From the NCBI GenBank assembly GCA_039714075.1, contig JBDLKA010000133.1, positions 1 to 8,177 of the forward strand: a stretch of DNA of 8,177 nucleotides, given 5' to 3'. The position numbers were made by a program, and so were the translations under genes. Positions 1-8,177 of the stretch are shown one piece after another; the first letter of the stretch is position 1; each line of letters opens with the position of its first letter. This DNA is from Candidatus Krumholzibacteriota bacterium. GTDB lineage: Bacteria; Krumholzibacteriota; Krumholzibacteriia; LZORAL124-64-63. The notes beneath the pieces are model-generated. The model was given only the letters and a program-made list of their open reading frames with translations. It did no database searches and had not been told where the DNA came from.

Positions 1-670
1 CACGACCCCCGAGGTCGTCAACGTGACGATCGACACCGCGGGCCAGGCTGCTATTGCCGACTTCGGTTGGATGGAAGAGGGCGGCGGCGAACTGGCCTCC
101 ATCAGCGGTGTCGTGTTCGACGACACCAACGGCGACGGTGTCCAGGACGAAGGCGAACTGGGCCTTTCCGGTATGCGGGTCGGCCTGCAGGGGGCCGCAA
201 TCCTCGAGGTGACCACCGATGCCGACGGCGCCTACGCGTTTGCGGACCTGGGCATGGGTGAGTATACCGTCAAGAGCTTTGGACCTCCCGGTTGGGTTGC
301 CACGACCCCCGAGGTCGTCAACGTGACGATCGACACCGCGGGCCAGGCTGCTATTGCCGACTTCGGTTGGATGGAAGAGGGCGGCGGCGAACTGGCCTCG
401 ATCGGCGGTGTCGTATTCGAGGACGTGAATAACAACGGTGTCCAGGACGAAGGTGAACTCGGTTTGGCTGGTCTCAGGGTCGGTCTCCAGGGCGCCGCGA
501 CCGCGGAAGCCACCACCGACGCGGACGGTGCCTATGCATTTGCCGACCTGGGCATGGGTGAGTACACCGTCAAGAGCTTTGGCCCCAACGCCTACATGGC
601 TACCACCCCGGAGGTCGTCAACGTGACGATCGATACCGCCGGCCAGGCCGAGACCGTGGACTTCGGCTGG
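1..670 (+). repeat. Intragenic tandem repeat, 300-bp (100-codon) period
   Basis: 1-99 is identical to 301-399. 100-300 vs 400-600 differs at about 49 of 201 positions by hand count. 601-670 is a further diverged copy of 1-70. Confidence 0.95.
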
Positions 671-697
671 CAGGCCTATACCGGGAATCATCCTTGA
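2..697 (+). CDS. SdrD B-like (Cna-B/SpaA-like) repeat-containing surface/secreted protein, 5'-partial C-terminal fragment
   Basis: The frame is open from position 2 (TTPEVVNVTI...), so the GTG at 23 is not the true start. It has tandem ~100-aa units with the SdrD-B signature ISGVVFDDTNGDGVQDEGELGLSG...TTDADGAYAF...GEYTV...DFG. Stop TGA at 695-697. Confidence 0.85.
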   Translation, partial: TTPEVVNVTIDTAGQAAIADFGWMEEGGGELASISGVVFDDTNGDGVQDEGELGLSGMRVGLQGAAILEVTTDADGAYAFADLGMGEYTVKSFGPPGWVATTPEVVNVTIDTAGQAAIADFGWMEEGGGELASIGGVVFEDVNNNGVQDEGELGLAGLRVGLQGAATAEATTDADGAYAFADLGMGEYTVKSFGPNAYMATTPEVVNVTIDTAGQAETVDFGWQAYTGNHP

Positions 698-1502: not shown

Positions 1503-1614
1503 GTTCGCCGGCCTTCATTGGCCTGACAAACAAGGGAACCGGGATGTCCTCAGGCCTTCGGCCCTGCGGATTACCCGGTTCCCTTGTTTGTCAGACCAAT
1601 GAAGGCCGGTGAAC
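1503..1614. repeat. Long inverted repeat (41-bp arms) filling the gap between convergent genes; bidirectional terminator or MITE/REP-like element
   Basis: Left arm 1503-1543 gttcgccggccttcattggcctgacaaacaagggaaccggg matches the reverse complement of 1574-1614 at 39 of 41 positions. The 30-nt spacer is itself partly self-complementary (tcc-t-cagg...cttcgg...cctg-c-gga). Confidence 0.9.
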
Positions 1615-3050
1615 TACTCCACCTGCATTACCAGGTAGCGCTGCATGCCACCACGCTCGATGTGGAACACCGCAGGGGCGCCGAACGCCAGCTCCTTGAC
1701 CTGGCTCTTCAGGCTCCGCAGCCCTTTGACCGGCTGTCCGTTCAGGGTGTAAATCACGTCGCCGGGCTGGAAATGATCGCCCAGCAGGTTGACGTCCGCG
1801 GCCAGGGAAGCCACGACCACACCTTCGCGCCGCCGCGTCTGGAAGGGCAGCATCCGGGACGAATCCTTGTCCAGGTCGATGGCCAGGACGCCGATCTTTT
1901 TGACCAGGTTCTTCTCGGCGGTGATCATCTCGTAGAAACGGTAGTCGGGATCGACCCTCTCGATGACCTCGACTTCCTTGGAGAATTTCTTGCCGCCGCG
2001 CATCACTTCCAGCGCCACCTTGCCGCCGATCTGCTTGTTGTAGAGGTTCACCTCGAACTGCCGTGAGTTCTCCATGGGCTTGCCGTCCAGGGTGAGGATG
2101 ATGTCGCCCACCTGCAGGCCGGCCGCGTCGGCGGGGCCCTGGGGATAGACGTCGCCCAGGATGACGCCCCACTGGGTCTCCAGTTCCAGGGGCCCGGCGA
2201 TCCAGGGGTTCAGCGTCTGGGCGTTGACCCCGATGATGCCGCGCTTGACCCGGCCGGTGGCGCGGATCTGGTTGAAAACGTTTTTGGCGATGTTGCTCGG
2301 GGAACTGAAGCTCAGGCCCTCGCTGCCGCCGCTCTGGGTGAAGATCAGGGTGTTGATGCCGATAACCTCGCCGCGGGCGTTGACCAGGGGGCCGCCGCTG
2401 TTGCCGGGATTGACGGCCACGTCGCTCTGGATGTAGATCATCGGGGTGTCGCGCTCGAGCTGGCGGGCCACCGTGCTGATCACGCCGAAGCTGACCGAGT
2501 TGTTCAGGCCCATCGGGCTGCCGAAGGCGAACACCAGCTGGCCCTGGAAGATCTCGTCCGAATCGCCGAGTTTCAGGAAGGGCAGGTCGGTCCTGTTGAT
2601 CTTCAGGACGGCCAGGTCGGTTTCCTTGTCCACGCCGATGATCTGGGCGCCCACGAGGTCGCCGCCCGTTTCCAGGATCGACGAACCCGCGTCCCTGCCC
2701 AGGGCGTGGGGCGACAGCCGCACCTGCACCCGCTTGGCGCCTTCGACCACGTGGTTGTTGGTCAGGATGTATCCCTTGGGGTCCAGAATGATGCCCGAGC
2801 CGGTCGCCTGCTGCTTGCCGAACAGGGTGGCGCCCTGGGGCGACGAACCCGTCAGGGAACCGAAGGAGGAGGTGTAGATCTGCACCACCGCGGGGCTGAC
2901 CGTCCGGGTCAGTTCACGGATCTCGTCGCTGAGCGAGGTGATGCTCCATTCCTGGTCGGCCTGGGCGGAGGCCGGAACGGCGCCGAGGCCGGCCGCCAGG
3001 CAAAGGACCAGTCCGGTCAGGAAAGTACGGTTGAAAATGGTCGAGAACAC
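1614..3050 (-). CDS. htrA: HtrA/DegP/DegQ-family periplasmic trypsin-like serine protease with two PDZ domains
   Basis: Catalytic triad motifs TNNHVV (His), ETDLAVLK (Asp) and NPGNSGGPL (Ser), plus GSGII and GSPMGL, followed by two PDZ-like domains (GLQVGDIIL; FQPGDVIYTLNG). The likely start is GTG at 3050, 5 nt after GGAGG (3060-3056). This gives a signal peptide ending VPASA/Q and 478 aa, rather than the 517 aa of the ORF track. Confidence 0.93.
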   Translation of the reverse strand: MFSTIFNRTFLTGLVLCLAAGLGAVPASAQADQEWSITSLSDEIRELTRTVSPAVVQIYTSSFGSLTGSSPQGATLFGKQQATGSGIILDPKGYILTNNHVVEGAKRVQVRLSPHALGRDAGSSILETGGDLVGAQIIGVDKETDLAVLKINRTDLPFLKLGDSDEIFQGQLVFAFGSPMGLNNSVSFGVISTVARQLERDTPMIYIQSDVAVNPGNSGGPLVNARGEVIGINTLIFTQSGGSEGLSFSSPSNIAKNVFNQIRATGRVKRGIIGVNAQTLNPWIAGPLELETQWGVILGDVYPQGPADAAGLQVGDIILTLDGKPMENSRQFEVNLYNKQIGGKVALEVMRGGKKFSKEVEVIERVDPDYRFYEMITAEKNLVKKIGVLAIDLDKDSSRMLPFQTRRREGVVVASLAADVNLLGDHFQPGDVIYTLNGQPVKGLRSLKSQVKELAFGAPAVFHIERGGMQRYLVMQVE

Positions 3051-3122
3051 GTTGACCTCCATGCGGGCCGGGCCCGGTTGGGATAGGGATTCCTTTTGTC
3101 GGGATTCCATTATTGCGAGCAT

Positions 3123-3151
3123 ATGGTAATGGGAAAGAAGGGTCCGGTCAA
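3123..3151 (-). promoter_or_regulatory. Possible sigma70-type promoter for the HtrA gene
   Basis: Minus strand TTGACC (3151-3146), 17 nt, TACCAT (3128-3123). It lies just downstream of the upstream gene's terminator. Confidence 0.4.
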
Positions 3152-3180
3152 CGCGTCCGGGTCCCATAGGCGGTTACGAC

Positions 3181-3211
3181 AAAAAAAGGCCCCGGAAAAA
3201 ATCCCGGGGCC
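3181..3211 (-). terminator. Rho-independent terminator of the FG-GAP/selenoprotein gene
   Basis: Minus strand GGCCCCGG-gatttttt-CCGGGGCC followed by TTTTTTT (A-tract 3181-3187 on +), about 25 nt after the stop at 3236. Confidence 0.9.
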
Positions 3212-3235: not shown

Positions 3236-5848
3236 CTATTTCACGAGAACCATCCTGCCGGCTTCGCTGAAGCCGCCCGCGGTGGTCAGCCGGTAGAAAT
3301 AGGCGCCCGAGGCCACTCCGTGTCCCAGGTGGTCGGTGCCGTCCCAGGTGGCGGTGTGGGGTCCGGCGCCCAGGCCCCGGTCGACCAGGGTGCGCACGTG
3401 ACGGCCGTCGATGGTGAACACGTCCAGTCGGGCATGGCCGGCCCCGGCCAACGCGAACTCGATGGTGGTCGAGGGATTGAACGGGTTGGGGTGCGCCTGG
3501 CCCAGGGACGTGGTCCGGGCCGGGACCGCGTCGGGCACGGGGCTGACGGGTTGGCCCTGCACGATGGCCAGGGTCTGGTTCGTGAAGGTCGGTCCGGTCA
3601 GTTGGTGGGTGCCGTCGGGCCAGAAGATCTCGATCTGGTCCACGGTGGTCGAGGCGCCCAACCCGAAGTGAACATCCATGGCGTTGTTGCACAAATAGCC
3701 GGACCCCGAGGTGACCATCCGGGACTGCGAAACGCCGCCGGCGGTCAACACCACCCGGGTCCCGATGGCGCAGGTGTTGTTGCCCGGGGCGGTCAGGTGC
3801 AGTTTGATCCAGCGGTTGTCGTCGCCCAGCTTGTTGGTGAACAGGACGTTGGTCGCGCCTTCCCGCGAAATGAACAGGTCCAGGTCGCCGTCGTCGTCGA
3901 TGTCGCCGCAGGCCACCGCGTTGCCGGGGCCGTCGGCTTCGGCCGGTCCCACGGGAACGCGAAAGAAGTTGCCCGCGCCGTCACCCATGAGCATCAGGTC
4001 GGGCTGGTTGTTCCGGACGATGTACAGATCCAGGAAGGTGTCGTTGTCGAAATCGATCCAGGTGACCCCGCGTCCGTCGCCCCGGTCACCCAGGTTGGGG
4101 CCGATGATCTGGGTATAGCTGAGACTGGCGGCGCACCGGTACAGAAGATCGGCCATGCCTTCGTTGACCACGTAGAGATCGAAATCCCCGTCGTTGTCGT
4201 AGTCGCCCCAGGCGGAGCCCATGGCCTTGCCCAGGTGTTCACCGATTCCGCAGGAGTTGGTGATGTCCGAGAACCCGATGGTCGTGTTCTCCAGCATGCG
4301 GTTGGCGCTGAACTGGTTGGCGATGAACAGATCGGGGCGGCCGTCCAGGTTGCCGTCACCCCAGGCGGCGGCGCTGCCTTCGCCAAGGTCGGCGGCGTTG
4401 CCGGCCACGGCCGAGAAATAATAGGTTCCACCAACAACGGCAATGCCTTTCAACAGTTCGTTGGCTTCCCCCTTGTTGACGACGTAGAGATCCAGAATCC
4501 CGTCCAGATCGAAATCGATCCAGCTGGTACTGGAACCGCTGGCCACGTTGTCCATGCCGAAGGTGGACATGGCGGTGAATCCGCCGCTGCCGTCACCGGT
4601 CATCAGGATGTTCGTGTCGCCGTTGCGGGACAGCATGACGTCCAGGTTGCCGTCGCCGTCGATGTCCGCCCAGGCGGATCCGCGGCTGGGGCCGGCTTCG
4701 GCAATCGCACCGGAGGCGATGTCCGTGAATCCGGAGACGCCGTCGTTGCGCAGGACCTGATCGGCCGTGCCCTCGTTGACGACGTGAATATCCAGATCAC
4801 CGTCGTTGTCGACATCGACCATGCTGACCGCCTGGCCGGAATCGGCGTTGCCGATCGGACCGGCGGTCGAAAGATCGAAGGGACCTCCCGTATACGAACC
4901 GAGGAAGGTGATGACGCCGCCCTGGGCGACGGTCTGGGTCTCGGGATTGTTGGCGGGGGTGACCCAGTAGGGGACATCATCCCAGGTGATGGTGTAGGTG
5001 CCGGCGTCCCAGAGGTTCAGGGTCCGGTCGCCGTTGTGGGAAATATCCAGTCCCGGGCCGACCAGGGTCCAGGGCGCCTCGACGCCGTCGGGATCCGCAT
5101 CGACGATCACCTGGGCCGCGTAATCGGCCACCGCCAGGGTGGCCTGGAGGATTTCCTTGGTGGTCATGTCCTGGACCACGATGATGAGCCGCAAGTCGGG
5201 CTCGTTCCAGCTGGGGTCCATGGTGAAGGACCGGTCGATGGTGACGGTCTGGCCAGGTGTTGTCAGGGCGAACGGTTCATTGGCGAGCATGTCCACGACC
5301 ATGTTGGACTGCTCGTGCAGTCCTTCCTGGCAGACGAAGAACTTGACCTCGTTGTTGGAACCGCCGACGGCCAGGTCGACGTCGATCTGCAGGGACAATT
5401 CGATGTCGGTGCCGCCCACCAGCACGTAGCTGGCGGCCATGACCAGGGGGCTGGGCGTGCCGAGTTGGCTGATCACCGACGGGTTGTAATAGTAGAACAT
5501 GGAACCGCTGCCCAGGCCCCCGACATGGCTGTCGGTGCCGCCGACCCATACGGTTGGCGTACCGGTTACTCCGTACCAGTTGGCACGGGCCCTGCCCTCG
5601 GGGATTTCATATGGCGCCCCGAAGTAAAAGGTCATCCCCAGGAATTCACTGGTGCTGTAGACGGTTTCCAGGTCATCGATTCCGCGCACGGCGGAGGGAC
5701 AGTAGGGTCAGCCGTCCGCGGACCAGAGCTCACCGACGACGGTGCGGTCCGCTGCATAGACGAATCCGGATGCGCCGAGCAGGCCGGCGGCCAGGGCAAA
5801 AAGCAGGAGGCCTGTGAGCTTGGAAGAAAGCCGGTGGGCGGTCAGCAT
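3236..5848 (-). CDS. Predicted secreted selenoprotein: signal peptide, Omp28/thioredoxin-like domain with UxxC (Sec47), small beta-sandwich, 7 FG-GAP/VCBS repeats, ASPIC/UnbV domain and FlgD-Ig/T9SS-type-A-like C-terminal domain (870 aa with UGA read as Sec)
   Basis: AAGGAG RBS (5862-5857) and ATG at 5848 give MLTAHRLSSKLTGLLLFALAAGLLGASGFVYA/ADRTVVGELWSADG. An in-frame TGA (5710-5708) follows, then PYCPSAV, continuing into ORF 3236-5689. The Trx cis-Pro-type motif is YGVTGTPTVWVGG. There are seven DxDxDGxxD-like loops (DVDNDGDLD, DIDGDGNLD, DFDLDGILD, DGNLDGRPD, DYDNDGDFD, DFDNDTFLD, DIDDDGDLD). The ASPIC motif is AIGTRV...SGSGYL...VHFGLG and the C-terminus reads HPNPFNPSTTIEF...WDGTD...VASGAYFYRL...MVLVK. 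Confidence 0.85.
5681..5695 (-). promoter_or_regulatory. Candidate bacterial SECIS hairpin
   Basis: The mRNA reads UGA-cccuacuguccc-UCCGC-cgugc-GCGGA. This is a 5-bp stem starting 13 nt after UGA, with a 5-nt apical loop that has G at its second position and starts 17 nt after UGA. The geometry fits the general bacterial SECIS model, but short GC stems also arise by chance. Confidence 0.5.
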
Positions 5849-5966
5849 GGGTGGTGCTCCTTGCGGCAGTGTTTAGAGGATGCGAAATCTTATGAATATA
5901 ATACTACATTTTCACTGTGGAATCAGGGGAAAATACCAGAGTGTTCTCAGGGGACCTGAGGGCCCT

Positions 5967-6245
5967 TTATTGGACGGGAAGGACCAGCCCTGCCTCCATC
6001 AGCTGGGTTATGAACATCTGAAGATCCTCCGCCGCGGTGGGGGCCGCGACCTCATATTCATTCAATATATCGTCCAGGATTTCATCCAGGGCCTTGCGGC
6101 CGTCGATCCGGTTCCAGATGAAAGCCCCGATATCCTCGATGGAGTGGGTTTCGTTCCCTTCGGAGCTGACGATGACCAGGCCGCTGCCGATGGTGCGAAC
6201 CGGGCATTCCTCGTTGTGGGTCAGGATCGTCTTCATGTCCATCAT
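5967..6245 (-). CDS. PqqD-family protein (stand-alone RiPP recognition element-like domain)
   Basis: 92 aa with a typical PqqD pattern: three short strands (VRTIGSGLVIV...THSI), then GAFIWNRIDGRKALDEILDDILNEYEV...AAEDLQMFITQLMEAGLV. AGGAGGG RBS at 6261-6255. Confidence 0.88.
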   Translation of the reverse strand: MMDMKTILTHNEECPVRTIGSGLVIVSSEGNETHSIEDIGAFIWNRIDGRKALDEILDDILNEYEVAAPTAAEDLQMFITQLMEAGLVLPVQ

Positions 6246-6378
6246 GGCCGGATTCCCTCCTGAAATTGGCCGCGTCTGGTTTCAGAGATCAGAATCGGAC
6301 AAATCATCCATCCGCTTGAGATTTTTTGTCGGAGGGTTGTTTTGGCGCCGGGTTTGGTCGAGCCGGGTATTTGTCCAT

Positions 6379-7737
6379 TTATTTGCATATTTTACAGTAT
6401 TTTGCCTTGTATTTTCGCTTGATTTTCGCTATATTGGGTTTCAACCTCCCGATCATCACGTTTTGACTGTATTTCCTGCATTTTCCGGGAGGAAAATCCA
6501 TGAACGAATTCTGTTCCGACCAGCCGGCAATTGAGGTCCACTCCGCCTTGAAATCAGCCCTGCAGGCCCTGGAAAAGGCTAAACAATGCGCCGTTCTCTG
6601 GTTCGGCGAGATCCTCGATCGCAAACTCTTTCTGGAACTGGGGTACAGCTCCATCAACCAGTATGCCGCGGTGGAGCTCGGGTAAACGCTCTCGATCGAG
6701 GCACTTAAGCGGTCAAGTTGCAGCTTGGCGCCCACATAATCGCTATGGACGGCAGAGAGTTCATCAATAAGCCGTTCAAGCGGTTCAAAAAGCCCTTTCA
6801 CACGGCTGCTCTCATTCAGGAGTTCATCCATCTGTTTGGCTGACAGGATCATCTGCTTCATCACAAGCTGGCTCTGCTCTTTCACCCCTTCAATAAGTCG
6901 CTCATCTTCACTTAACGAGGTTGAGATACCTTCTGATTGCGAGCGTAAAGCACTCAGCTGATGGGCAAAACTTTGCAAGAGCGCGTCAATCTCATCTCCC
7001 GTATCACGCACCAGCTGGTGGGCCGCAGACTTGAAGAGGGGTATGAGATTTTCAACACTCTCCCGTAAAGCGACCATCTCATTCTGGAAGCTTCCCTCAT
7101 CTCCCCGGCTCTTTAATGCCTGCTTGATCTGGTTGAAATGATCCTGTTCGGAGACACGCAGCATATCGATGTGGCGATGGATGACGCTGTCGATGTCCGG
7201 CAGCTCTTGATGGGCAAATGTTTCAAATGCTTTGAGCGCCTCTTCCTGAGAAGCGACGATCGACTGAATCTGCTCCACAAAACGGTCCTGGTTGCCCTGA
7301 ATAACAGCCAGTGCCTCCTTCTCGTTTTTGAACACCGCTTTCATCACGCCTTGCATGGATTTCTCCTGCTCGCTGATGGTGTGCTGATTGCCTTCAAGCA
7401 CGGCGATATAGTTTTTCAGCTGGCCGACCTGCTTCATCAGGCGTTGCGTAAAGTCATTTTGCAGGCGTGCAGCTTCACGCTGTTTTGACTGATGCATAAT
7501 GTTCATAATGACAAAAAGCATTAAACCGGCGAAGAAAGGCAGAAGCGATTCACGAAAGACAAGAATGAAGTTTTCGGTTTCGGGATACAACAGAAGATGG
7601 ATCATCGCTCCAATGCCGCCAATACCGAGAAGAAGAGGCGCATAGTTGATCTTGTTAGGGTCTTTAAAGATCATCACCTGTCGGATAAACAACACGCCCA
7701 TCAAGATGAAAGTAACAATAAAGTCGAGATCAAGCAT
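6379..7737 (-). CDS. Membrane-anchored coiled-coil hypothetical protein; the genuine part is probably 7737 to ~6685, and the last ~100 codons are run-on across a junction
   Basis: AGGAG RBS at 7747-7743. Three N-terminal hydrophobic segments are followed by a long Q/E/L/K-rich helical region up to ...LDRLSASIESV (codon 351). The rest is antisense to the 6500-6685 gene and its promoter. The N-terminus resembles Campylobacterota (Sulfurimonas/Sulfuricurvum-like) hypothetical proteins, recalled from memory. Confidence 0.7.
   Translation of the reverse strand: MLDLDFIVTFILMGVLFIRQVMIFKDPNKINYAPLLLGIGGIGAMIHLLLYPETENFILVFRESLLPFFAGLMLFVIMNIMHQSKQREAARLQNDFTQRLMKQVGQLKNYIAVLEGNQHTISEQEKSMQGVMKAVFKNEKEALAVIQGNQDRFVEQIQSIVASQEEALKAFETFAHQELPDIDSVIHRHIDMLRVSEQDHFNQIKQALKSRGDEGSFQNEMVALRESVENLIPLFKSAAHQLVRDTGDEIDALLQSFAHQLSALRSQSEGISTSLSEDERLIEGVKEQSQLVMKQMILSAKQMDELLNESSRVKGLFEPLERLIDELSAVHSDYVGAKLQLDRLSASIESVYPSSTAAYWLMELYPSSRKSLRSRISPNQRTAHCLAFSRACRADFKAEWTSIAGWSEQNSFMDFPPGKCRKYSQNVMIGRLKPNIAKIKRKYKAKYCKICK
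6407..6435 (+). promoter_or_regulatory. Possible sigma70-type promoter for the gene starting at 6500
   Basis: TTGTAT (6407-6412), 17 nt, TATATT (6430-6435), inside an AT-rich divergent intergenic region. Confidence 0.4.
6500..6685 (+). pseudogene. N-terminal fragment of a probable DUF222/HNH-endonuclease-associated protein, cut off at the sequence junction
   Basis: GGAGG RBS at 6488-6492 and ATG at 6500. The 61 aa include AVLWFGEILDRKLFLELGYSSINQYAAVELG, which resembles from memory the R..Y..LGYSS..qYa...LG N-terminus of DUF222/HNH proteins. It stops (TAA 6683-6685) where the composition changes. Confidence 0.6.
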
Positions 7738-7786
7738 AAGATCTCCTGATATTTTTTAGAGCTATCCTGTATTCTACACAAAATTA

Positions 7787-8176
7787 TCAGGCGGAAGCAA
7801 CAATCTCCAGTAATTTATGCGGTTTTTCAATGACATGGTCGCCGTTTCCCTTCTCACTGAACCCCCATGTCACAAAGACACTTCTGATCCCCGCATTGAG
7901 AGCAGCCTCAATGTCTTTGGAGTTATCGCCGATCATCCAGGCAGCTTCAGTACCAGGCAACGCCTCTAGCACGATCTGGAACGCACGCGAATGCGGTTTT
8001 TCGTAGCCCATTTCTGCCGAATTGAAGACGCGCGCCACCCGTGACGCCAGCCCCAAGTGCTGCACAATATCGCCCAACTCCGGCACGTGATTGGAGAGGA
8101 TGACGTGCGTCCACCCCTGGGACGAAAGCACGTCCAGCGCGGGCAGCACGTCATCATACAATCGCCAGCGTTCGAG
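7787..8176 (-). CDS. HAD-superfamily hydrolase (subfamily IA, phosphoglycolate phosphatase-like), 5'-partial and possibly chimeric
   Basis: The frame is open to the window edge (LERWRLYDDV...). HAD motif II is ILSN, motif III is EKP and motif IV is WMIGDNSKDI, followed by AG...VTWGF. Motif I lies outside the window. Confidence 0.85.
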   Translation of the reverse strand, partial: LERWRLYDDVLPALDVLSSQGWTHVILSNHVPELGDIVQHLGLASRVARVFNSAEMGYEKPHSRAFQIVLEALPGTEAAWMIGDNSKDIEAALNAGIRSVFVTWGFSEKGNGDHVIEKPHKLLEIVASA

Positions 8177-8177
8177 G

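Follow-up and report, generated by a model that had tools for sequence, protein, structure and literature searches.

We found that an in-frame TGA at positions 5710-5708 of an 8,177-nucleotide stretch of Candidatus Krumholzibacteriota DNA (contig JBDLKA010000133.1, here called the window as a whole) is, on sequence evidence, almost certainly a genuine selenocysteine (Sec, U) codon. It is also highly probable that the minus strand from 5848 to 3236 forms a single gene for an 870-residue exported selenoprotein. In the predicted protein, a thioredoxin-fold module containing the motif U47-P-Y-C50 precedes a β-propeller, an ASPIC/UnbV domain and a tail resembling type IX secretion domains.

When the UGA is read through, the gene comprises 870 codons in one frame, with its sole TGA at codon 47. 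A Shine-Dalgarno-like AAGGAG (5857..5862, minus strand, as are all features below unless marked otherwise) was recognized by sequence reading 8 nt 5' of the ATG (5848-5846). The ATG is followed by MLTAHRLSSKLTGLLLFALAAGLLGASGFVYA and ADRTVVGELWSADG, by the TGA and by PYCPSAVRG, from which the frame runs on to a TAG at 3238-3236. The start codon and a predicted Sec-type (secretory) signal peptide, residues 1 to 32, occupy 5753..5848; by inspection, a basic stretch, a hydrophobic stretch and VYA/AD come in that order before RTVVGELWSADG, cleavage would be expected after VYA, and the stretch SGFVYAAD is conserved among orthologues. The Sec codon itself (5708..5710), assigned by conservation, specifies the first residue of U-P-Y-C, and a TGT (5699..5701) specifies Cys50, the putative resolving cysteine of UxxC, which is the invariant column C18 of the alignment A2 described below. 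The program-made list of open reading frames (ORFs) divides this gene into a 46-residue ORF (5708-5848) and an 817-residue ORF (3236-5689). The initial annotation, made from the letters alone, had joined these two pieces through a ribosome-binding site, an ATG at 5848, a signal peptide and the TGA, and had pointed out that the GTG start of the longer ORF gives no signal peptide. We confirmed every one of these elements at its position, and the translation from the GTG indeed begins MRGIDDLE.

The strongest evidence for Sec is the conservation of the TGA. We searched 41 related genomes in six frames, with stops read through and the first 260 residues as the query, and obtained matches in 23 of them. 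Among the 38 matches listed, 29 had exactly one in-frame TGA and 9 had none (hand count); three of the matches without a stop span residues 196 to 246 only and were left out of the loci that were fetched. The TGA lay within U-x-Y-C-P, right after a strand R-x-V-x-x-E, in 20 of 20 fetched loci. Fifteen further loci had TGA at the same place in nine cases and TGC or TGT in five; the remaining locus (L046) had no recognizable homologue and was dropped. Named genome records added eight orthologues and one Bacteroidales metagenome-assembled genome (MAG) with TGA, as well as two Flavobacteriia records with Cys. After removal of duplicates, 37 distinct Sec sites (25 orthologues and 12 paralogue sites) and 7 Cys sites with TGC or TGT fell into one alignment column, and TGA was kept in 25 of 25 orthologues, a recurrence that greatly exceeds chance. 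The protein alignment A2, from which L054 was excluded as a near-duplicate of L053, holds 33 rows (28 Sec and 5 Cys) and has invariant columns at R35, E40-41, U/C47, C50, P98 and G104. The placement of Sec47 at the first Cys of a CxxC motif, first proposed in the initial annotation, was thus upheld by the conserved TGA, by Cys homologues that align across it and by the Sec machinery of the genome; at this column the homologues have U or Cys and never Trp or Gly.

The region around the TGA forms a recognizable fold. An AlphaFold2 (AF2) model built from A2, with a predicted local distance difference test score (pLDDT) of 93.9, showed a thioredoxin fold at residues 37 to 129, followed by a β-sandwich at 135 to 241. 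The core of the model has the order β-α-β-α-β-β-α, with UxxC at the start of helix 1 and the cis-Pro loop before strand 3. Based on this model, Foldseek and profile matches, we assign the thioredoxin-fold domain to residues of about 35 to 130 (5459..5746), which hold the glutamate E40-41, U47-x-x-C50 and the cis-Pro loop T97-P98. The β-sandwich half of the Omp28-like module is assigned to residues of about 135 to 241 (5126..5446) from the AF2 strands 103 to 209 of the A2 model and from Foldseek. The loop YGVTGTPT (residues 92 to 99), named in the initial annotation as the GxP loop of such domains, proved to contain the invariant cis-Pro column in its GTP. The acidic residue six positions before U47 lies at E40-41, which we take to correspond to the buried Asp26 in E. 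coli thioredoxin. Strand β1 of the fold, with the invariant R and E, comes from the stretch before the TGA.

Foldseek placed HBP35 (5y1a) first, with an E value of 2.5e-11 and a template-modeling (TM) score of 0.71 normalized to the query, followed by the DUF1223 protein 2axo and, lower and on the sandwich half, by the Omp28 domain 2r2c. Against solved structures, the A2 profile matched thioredoxin 1fo5 (E 9e-9) and HBP35 (E 5e-8); in 1fo5, the CPHC motif has its first Cys under the U column, and the cis-Pro loop is aligned too. This bears out the Omp28/thioredoxin-like domain initially annotated. Pfam gave nothing in residues 1 to 300 of the protein itself, and NF045500, named 'Omp28-related selenoprotein', was the only NCBIfam model that matched the N-terminal domain (E 1.5e-11, residues 35 to 256). 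Among the 33 A2 relatives, 27 matched PF11551, 18 matched NF033782 and 9 matched DUF1223, and 32 matched NF045500, all of them far below its cut-off (best E 1e-17). Since 27 of the 33 aligned homologues match PF11551, kinship with the Omp28 superfamily appears to be established through intermediates.

The same genome, whose assembly is 92% complete in 260 contigs, holds all of the machinery that was looked for. selA (448.1 bits), selB (327.8 bits, or 354.7 with a neighboring stretch in the same frame), selD (363.8 bits) and tRNA-Sec (68.5 bits; called SeC with anticodon tca by ARAGORN) each scored above the curated cut-off. The selD match (G000:C31:20863-21777, locus L001) has one in-frame TGA inside, so that the selenophosphate synthetase here is probably also a selenoprotein. 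Of 151 genomes sampled from the phylum, 148 had selA above its cut-off, and a gene that common does not separate genomes with the selenoprotein gene from those without. Two other ORFs of the window terminate in TGA, which indicates that TGA is still an ordinary stop codon here and has not been reassigned.

The possibility of a misread TGC or TGT, raised in the initial annotation, found no support in the assembled contigs, with which alone the comparison was made. One contig, assembled from the probable source run, is identical to the window over 5631-6000. The codon is also bridged by contigs from two metatranscriptome libraries, each from a separate study; these are 80-92% alike and so come from relatives, and two RNA-library contigs with only 30 letters on one side were not counted as bridging. 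No contig has another letter at 5708-5710 or any difference in 5678-5719, and there are many third-position differences from 5720 upward. This support is weak because RNA libraries can contain DNA. Sequencing runs with a share of 0.03 to 0.05 of the sampled words were not used as evidence of habitat.

A hairpin with the expected position follows the codon. The candidate bacterial selenocysteine insertion sequence (SECIS), TCCGCCGTGCGCGGA (5681..5695), spans +16 to +30 counted from the T of the TGA and has a 5-bp stem and a loop CGTGC with G22 and U23. In most other genera a 6-bp stem with a loop GGUC occupies +15 to +30, and the 3' arm of the window's genus is offset by one base relative to theirs. 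We scored a stem as present when it was perfect, had at least 5 bp with at least three G-C pairs, and started within a small window after the TGA. Such a stem was found at 29 of the 37 Sec sites, including 25 of 25 orthologues, and at 0 of 7 Cys sites; its frequency at in-frame control positions of the same genes was 20.6% (4350 of 21065). Synonymous sites also point to a constrained element. Among the 25 orthologues, the Ser codon of the stem is TCC in 23 of 23, and each clade has one fixed pair of Ala-Val codons, which is GCC-GTG for the window's genus and GCG-GTC for the rest; entropy at most of the domain's other four-fold sites is 1.1 to 1.9 bits.

Covariation was counted on the 17 sequences of the GGUC-loop clade, from which the window's genus and L067 were excluded because of the one-base register shift. 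In this set, 98% of the cells were paired. Third bases of a Pro and a Gly codon make the closing pair, which was UA in 12 sequences, GC in 2, AU in 1, CG in 1 and a mismatch in 1, and the pair 18-27 was CG in 16 and UA in 1. The covariation score of 0.188 was reached by 0 of 500 shuffles, and slid registers gave at most 0.066. For comparison, the upper SECIS stem-loop of E. coli is described at nucleotides 15-31 with G23 and U24 of the loop as SelB contacts (PMC8659212). The hairpin studied here resembles this fdhF-type element in lying within the coding sequence at a similar distance from the UGA (16-30 as against 15-31) and in the G22/U23 of its apical loop, but differs in its shorter stem (5 to 7 bp), in having no bulged U and in having no supported lower stem. 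We regard it as a well-supported SECIS candidate from sequence comparison, not as a proven one.

The region downstream of the module contains further recognizable domains. An FG-GAP/VCBS β-propeller with acidic loops of the DxDxDG type covers residues of about 335 to 690 (3779..4846; Pfam FG-GAP_3, six stretches, E 2.9e-28) and is followed by an ASPIC/UnbV domain at residues 694 to 760 (3569..3769; PF07593, E 3.2e-19, 69 bits versus a cut-off of 23.4). A model of the full-length protein had a mean pLDDT of 74.9, with most of residues 135 to 868 above 70 except for short dips and the linker 770-791; in its alignment, all rows but the window's own were truncated database forms. This model matched murine CRTAC1 (9etn_A) with an E value of 7.3e-24, a TM score of 0.72 normalized to the target and a root-mean-square deviation of 3.3 over 512 columns, through residues of about 335 to 760. 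Residues of about 785 to 870, with the TAG, make up a tail resembling FlgD-Ig (immunoglobulin-like) and type IX secretion domains (3236..3496; PF13860 and TIGR04183). The tail, borderline on the curated models, scored 27.4 bits on PF13860 FlgD_ig (residues 796 to 857; cut-off 27) and matched the tail region of the PorU model (E 6e-5). The genome itself encodes PorU (467.4 bits versus a cut-off of 420) and SprA (472.2 bits summed versus 200). Besides, about 45 other ORFs of the genome end in tails that match the C-terminal region of the PorU model, which suggests, from sequence matching, a large set of type IX secretion cargo.

We propose that codon 47 would be read as selenocysteine by SelB carrying Sec-tRNA(Sec), and that SelB would be recruited by the short hairpin 16-30 nt downstream, within the coding sequence. 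The signal peptide would carry the protein over the inner membrane, and the C-terminal Ig-like tail would probably pass it to the type IX secretion system, by which it would be released or attached to the surface; this route of export, by signal peptide and probable type IX hand-over, seems reasonably probable to us. Outside the cytoplasm, U47-P-Y-C50 might alternate between selenol/thiol and selenenylsulfide forms, so that the protein would serve as a thiol-disulfide oxidoreductase there. Binding of a partner or substrate would most likely fall to the FG-GAP propeller, which is CRTAC1-like and of the calcium type, with its ASPIC domain. Since a UxxC active site is combined with an upstream glutamate and a cis-proline loop, redox cycling is to be expected, and we slightly favor a redox function on the grounds of this conserved catalytic layout and of the activity of HBP35 in vitro.

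Several observations weigh against the reading of the gene as an exported Omp28-like selenoprotein. The protein's own sequence has no Pfam Omp28 (PF11551) match at E 0.1, and on NF045500 (cut-off 200) the whole protein reaches 44.3 bits and the isolated domain 49.3 bits. For the type IX route, the tail scores 19.2 bits on TIGR04183, below the cut-off of 23, and the PorV-like gene adjoining PorU scores 96.6 bits, below the cut-off of 250. The RNA-library contigs across the codon belong to relatives and come from libraries that can hold DNA. As for the hairpin, it is short and lacks a bulged U like U17 of E. coli fdhF, and 8 of the 12 paralogue Sec sites have no perfect stem of at least 5 bp; all eight belong to the paralogue class of 680 to 700 residues, whose folds have shorter or bulged stems. 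A search of Rfam at E values up to 10 gave nothing at 5680-5710, only weak unrelated matches, and RNAalifold gave no pairs on A1, a mixed alignment of 20 sequences. The hairpin energy was not above the gene background (106-nt fold, z -0.33). Over 34 sites, the mean z was -0.10 for Sec and +0.49 for Cys, and the median fraction of in-gene control windows that were at least as stable was 0.38 for Sec and 0.75 for Cys. Because folding energy does not discriminate, our argument for the hairpin relies on position, synonymous-site conservation and covariation.

These points must be set beside what other readings would explain. If the TGA were a true stop, the locus would hold a leader ORF of 46 codons and, as an independent product, a cytoplasmic protein of 817 residues whose start is the GTG at 5689, as all gene callers give it and as is suggested by the 31 of 31 orthologue clusters that begin after the TGA; the energetically unremarkable hairpin would also fit. 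We consider this very unlikely, because the region before the TGA supplies strand β1 with the invariant R and E, and the domain (residues 1 to 131, 5457-5848) is modeled with a pLDDT of 97-98 from full alignment rows but below 50 when the rows are truncated database forms that lack the stretch before the TGA, which implies that the strand and active site absent from those forms contribute to the fold. Moreover, frame, motif and TGA persist from 83% down to about 25% identity, homologues substitute Cys codons for the TGA, and the downstream part would have a secretion tail yet no signal peptide and only half of the active site. A nonsense mutation, a pseudogene lesion, or a sequencing or assembly error for TGC or TGT would require a change of one base only, in an assembly of 260 contigs, but the occurrence of TGA at 37 distinct sites in many genomes and genera, its presence in contigs of independent runs and the otherwise intact 870-codon frame leave this explanation with hardly any probability. 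Reading of the UGA as Trp, Gly or Cys by reassignment or near-cognate suppression, independently of the Sec machinery, has precedents in some uncultured lineages with UGA reassignment. It is nonetheless quite improbable here, where TGA terminates other ORFs of the window, each homologous frame contains a single TGA, which invariably falls in the redox Cys column, homologues have Cys there and not Trp or Gly, the full Sec machinery is present, and the downstream hairpin covaries.

A different question is whether the inserted Sec serves redox chemistry at all. Selenol/thiol pairs bind soft metals well, and the fused propeller resembles a binding module, so that the module might mainly be a ligand or metal binder or a sensor, for haem as in HBP35 or for a chalcophilic metal. 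HBP35 is indeed reported to bind hemin and to be required for growth when hemin is limiting, but the same report describes it as redox active through the equivalent cysteines (PMC2907840). In addition, the window's protein retains the whole catalytic layout of a thioredoxin: an acidic residue precedes U by six positions, UxxC opens a helix, and the cis-Pro loop is present. We therefore consider a mainly binding role unlikely, although less so than the three alternatives to Sec insertion, and keep the thiol-disulfide oxidoreductase as the preferred reading.

Proteins with this domain are unevenly distributed in the phylum, and the related records are titled as Candidatus Krumholzibacteriia or Krumholzibacteriota MAGs. 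The domain was found at an E value of 1e-5 or better in 66 of 151 sampled genomes; by family, it was found in 52 of 60 and 10 of 10 genomes of two families and in 0 of 33 of another. Copy number reached 11 per genome, with 9 to 11 in some genomes. Among roughly 150 matches listed, 47 had no stop (hand count) and the rest had one TGA. Their open frames fall into three size classes, of about 880 residues (the window's type), 680 to 700 residues and 350 to 380 residues, and in one genome (G024:C7:309896-315064) three head-to-tail paralogues of about 700 residues stand in tandem, each with one TGA at the UxxC column. The window's genome also encodes an Omp28-like paralogue of the Cys type, whose motif is CVPC and whose N terminus resembles that of a lipoprotein (G000:C12:16616-17281; locus L081 1184-2383, minus strand); Sec and Cys forms thus coexist in one organism. 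Full-length Cys relatives at greater distance have Omp28, PKD and secretion-tail domains where the window's protein has a propeller.

A collection of 5.8 billion proteins contained 31 clusters of this architecture, 735 to 819 residues long, none of which was named beyond 'hypothetical protein.' All 31 cover only 55-82% of residues 1 to 300 and are thus N-terminally truncated, as had been anticipated for the products of standard gene callers.

It is tempting to speculate that Krumholzibacteriota use type IX secretion to expose an entire set of selenocysteine enzymes at the cell surface. This idea, which we put forward as doubtful, builds on up to 9 to 11 Omp28-like copies per genome, most with Sec, in three size classes and sometimes in tandem. 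The window's protein would then be a member targeted to a substrate, in which a selenol oxidoreductase is joined to a CRTAC1-like calcium propeller that may hold an extracellular partner. If true, it would describe an extracellular selenoenzyme that is independent of cytoplasmic thioredoxin reductase and may be recharged by sulfide or another reductant present in anoxic sediment.

The remaining features of the window lie on either side of the gene. Directly after its stop codon is an intrinsic-terminator-like hairpin (3188..3211) of 10 pairs, 8 of them G-C, followed by a T run; since the region has 3 terminator-like sites versus 2.5 expected by chance, the argument for this one is its position after the stop and not the count. 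The hairpin separates the gene from a directly downstream DegP/HtrA-type serine protease with two PDZ domains (1614-3167, minus strand). An 879-residue ORF antisense to the selenoprotein gene (3320-5959, plus strand) is most likely a mirror-frame artefact of high GC content. GC drops from about 0.60-0.67 to 0.45-0.52 right of about position 6000 (window 5900-8177), where a 452-residue ORF (6379-7737, minus strand) has no convincing family. Residues 353 to 431 of this ORF are 71% identical to the DNA upstream of a congener's orthologue, so that the junction is probably not an assembly chimera. At the other end, an open-ended ORF (2-697, plus strand) consists of near-identical tandem units of about 100 residues with an SdrD B-like match (E 7e-36) and stops at a TGA; it probably encodes the C terminus of a large surface protein.

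The decoding mechanism proposed here is itself textbook, and the significance of the gene lies elsewhere. It and at least 31 database clusters are stored as truncated 'hypothetical' proteins that lack the signal peptide and the active site, and the curated selenoprotein model misses these records because their scores are far under its cut-off. A model for the subfamily would mend many records in a poorly known phylum. Furthermore, the gene adds a multidomain protein, probably exposed at the surface, to a group that has had no assigned function since its prediction in 2008, extends selenium use in Krumholzibacteriota to exported proteins, and gives that group a structural link to HBP35, its only characterized relative, which suggests concrete assays.

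Compared with known systems, the module of the window's protein stands closest in structure to HBP35, a 35-kDa hemin-binding protein of Porphyromonas gingivalis, for which insulin reduction requiring C48 and C51, as well as a C-terminal domain for transport to the outer membrane, has been reported (PMC2907840). HBP35 (5Y1A) is the best structural match to the N-terminal module, over both thioredoxin fold and β-sandwich, and has an N-terminal signal, an active-site pair Cys48/Cys51 that corresponds to U47/C50, and its own C-terminal domain for type IX secretion, but it has Cys in place of Sec, lacks a propeller and is only 16% identical. The MJ0307-type thioredoxins 1FO5 and 1NHO are the best profile matches among solved structures (E 9e-9 and 4e-8), and a 'Glutaredoxin, CPYC type' entry also appeared among the profile matches; unlike the window's protein, however, these thioredoxins and glutaredoxins are cytoplasmic proteins of 85 residues with Cys and no extra domains. 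The Omp28 (PF11551) and NF033782 lipoprotein families differ from a protein that has Sec, no lipobox Cys and no PF11551 match of its own. CRTAC1 (cartilage acidic protein 1, 9ETN) and bacterial ASPIC/UnbV proteins share the order of FG-GAP propeller and ASPIC/UnbV domain, with Pfam scores above the cut-offs, but CRTAC1 has neither a thioredoxin module nor Sec, and neither its biochemical role nor that of the window's protein helps to name a substrate.

The selenoprotein group that fits best is GOS_C, predicted by Zhang and Gladyshev in 2008 with a thioredoxin-like fold, a UxxC motif, 74 Sec sequences and 312 Cys homologues and reported there to have no known function (PMC2398784). NF045500 appears as 'Hypothetical protein GOS_C' with a UxxC motif in Table 1 of a 2026 review (PMC13188914). 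The literature searched, to which the BSepDB and GOS supplements did not belong, held no description of the propeller fusion or of Sec in Krumholzibacteriota. The window's protein and GOS_C/NF045500 have in common the thioredoxin-like fold, Sec where the first Cys would stand, numerous homologues with Cys, a SECIS-like hairpin downstream of the UGA, and UxxC, a likeness that rests on the family's description in the review table and on U47-P-Y-C50 in our model. They differ in source, as GOS_C comes from surface-ocean reads and the related records here are Krumholzibacteriota MAGs, and in size and architecture, as the NF045500 model has 377 positions and the window's protein has 870 residues with an additional Ig-like domain, a CRTAC1-like propeller with ASPIC, and a secretion tail. 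Even the best Krumholzibacteriota paralogue tested, a small full-length one, reached only 60.6 bits on NF045500 versus the cut-off of 200, and scores so far below it indicate a different, divergent branch. Judged by its sequence, the protein is thus a divergent member of the selenoprotein group predicted in 2008 and, as far as the literature searched shows, new in its fusion to a propeller.

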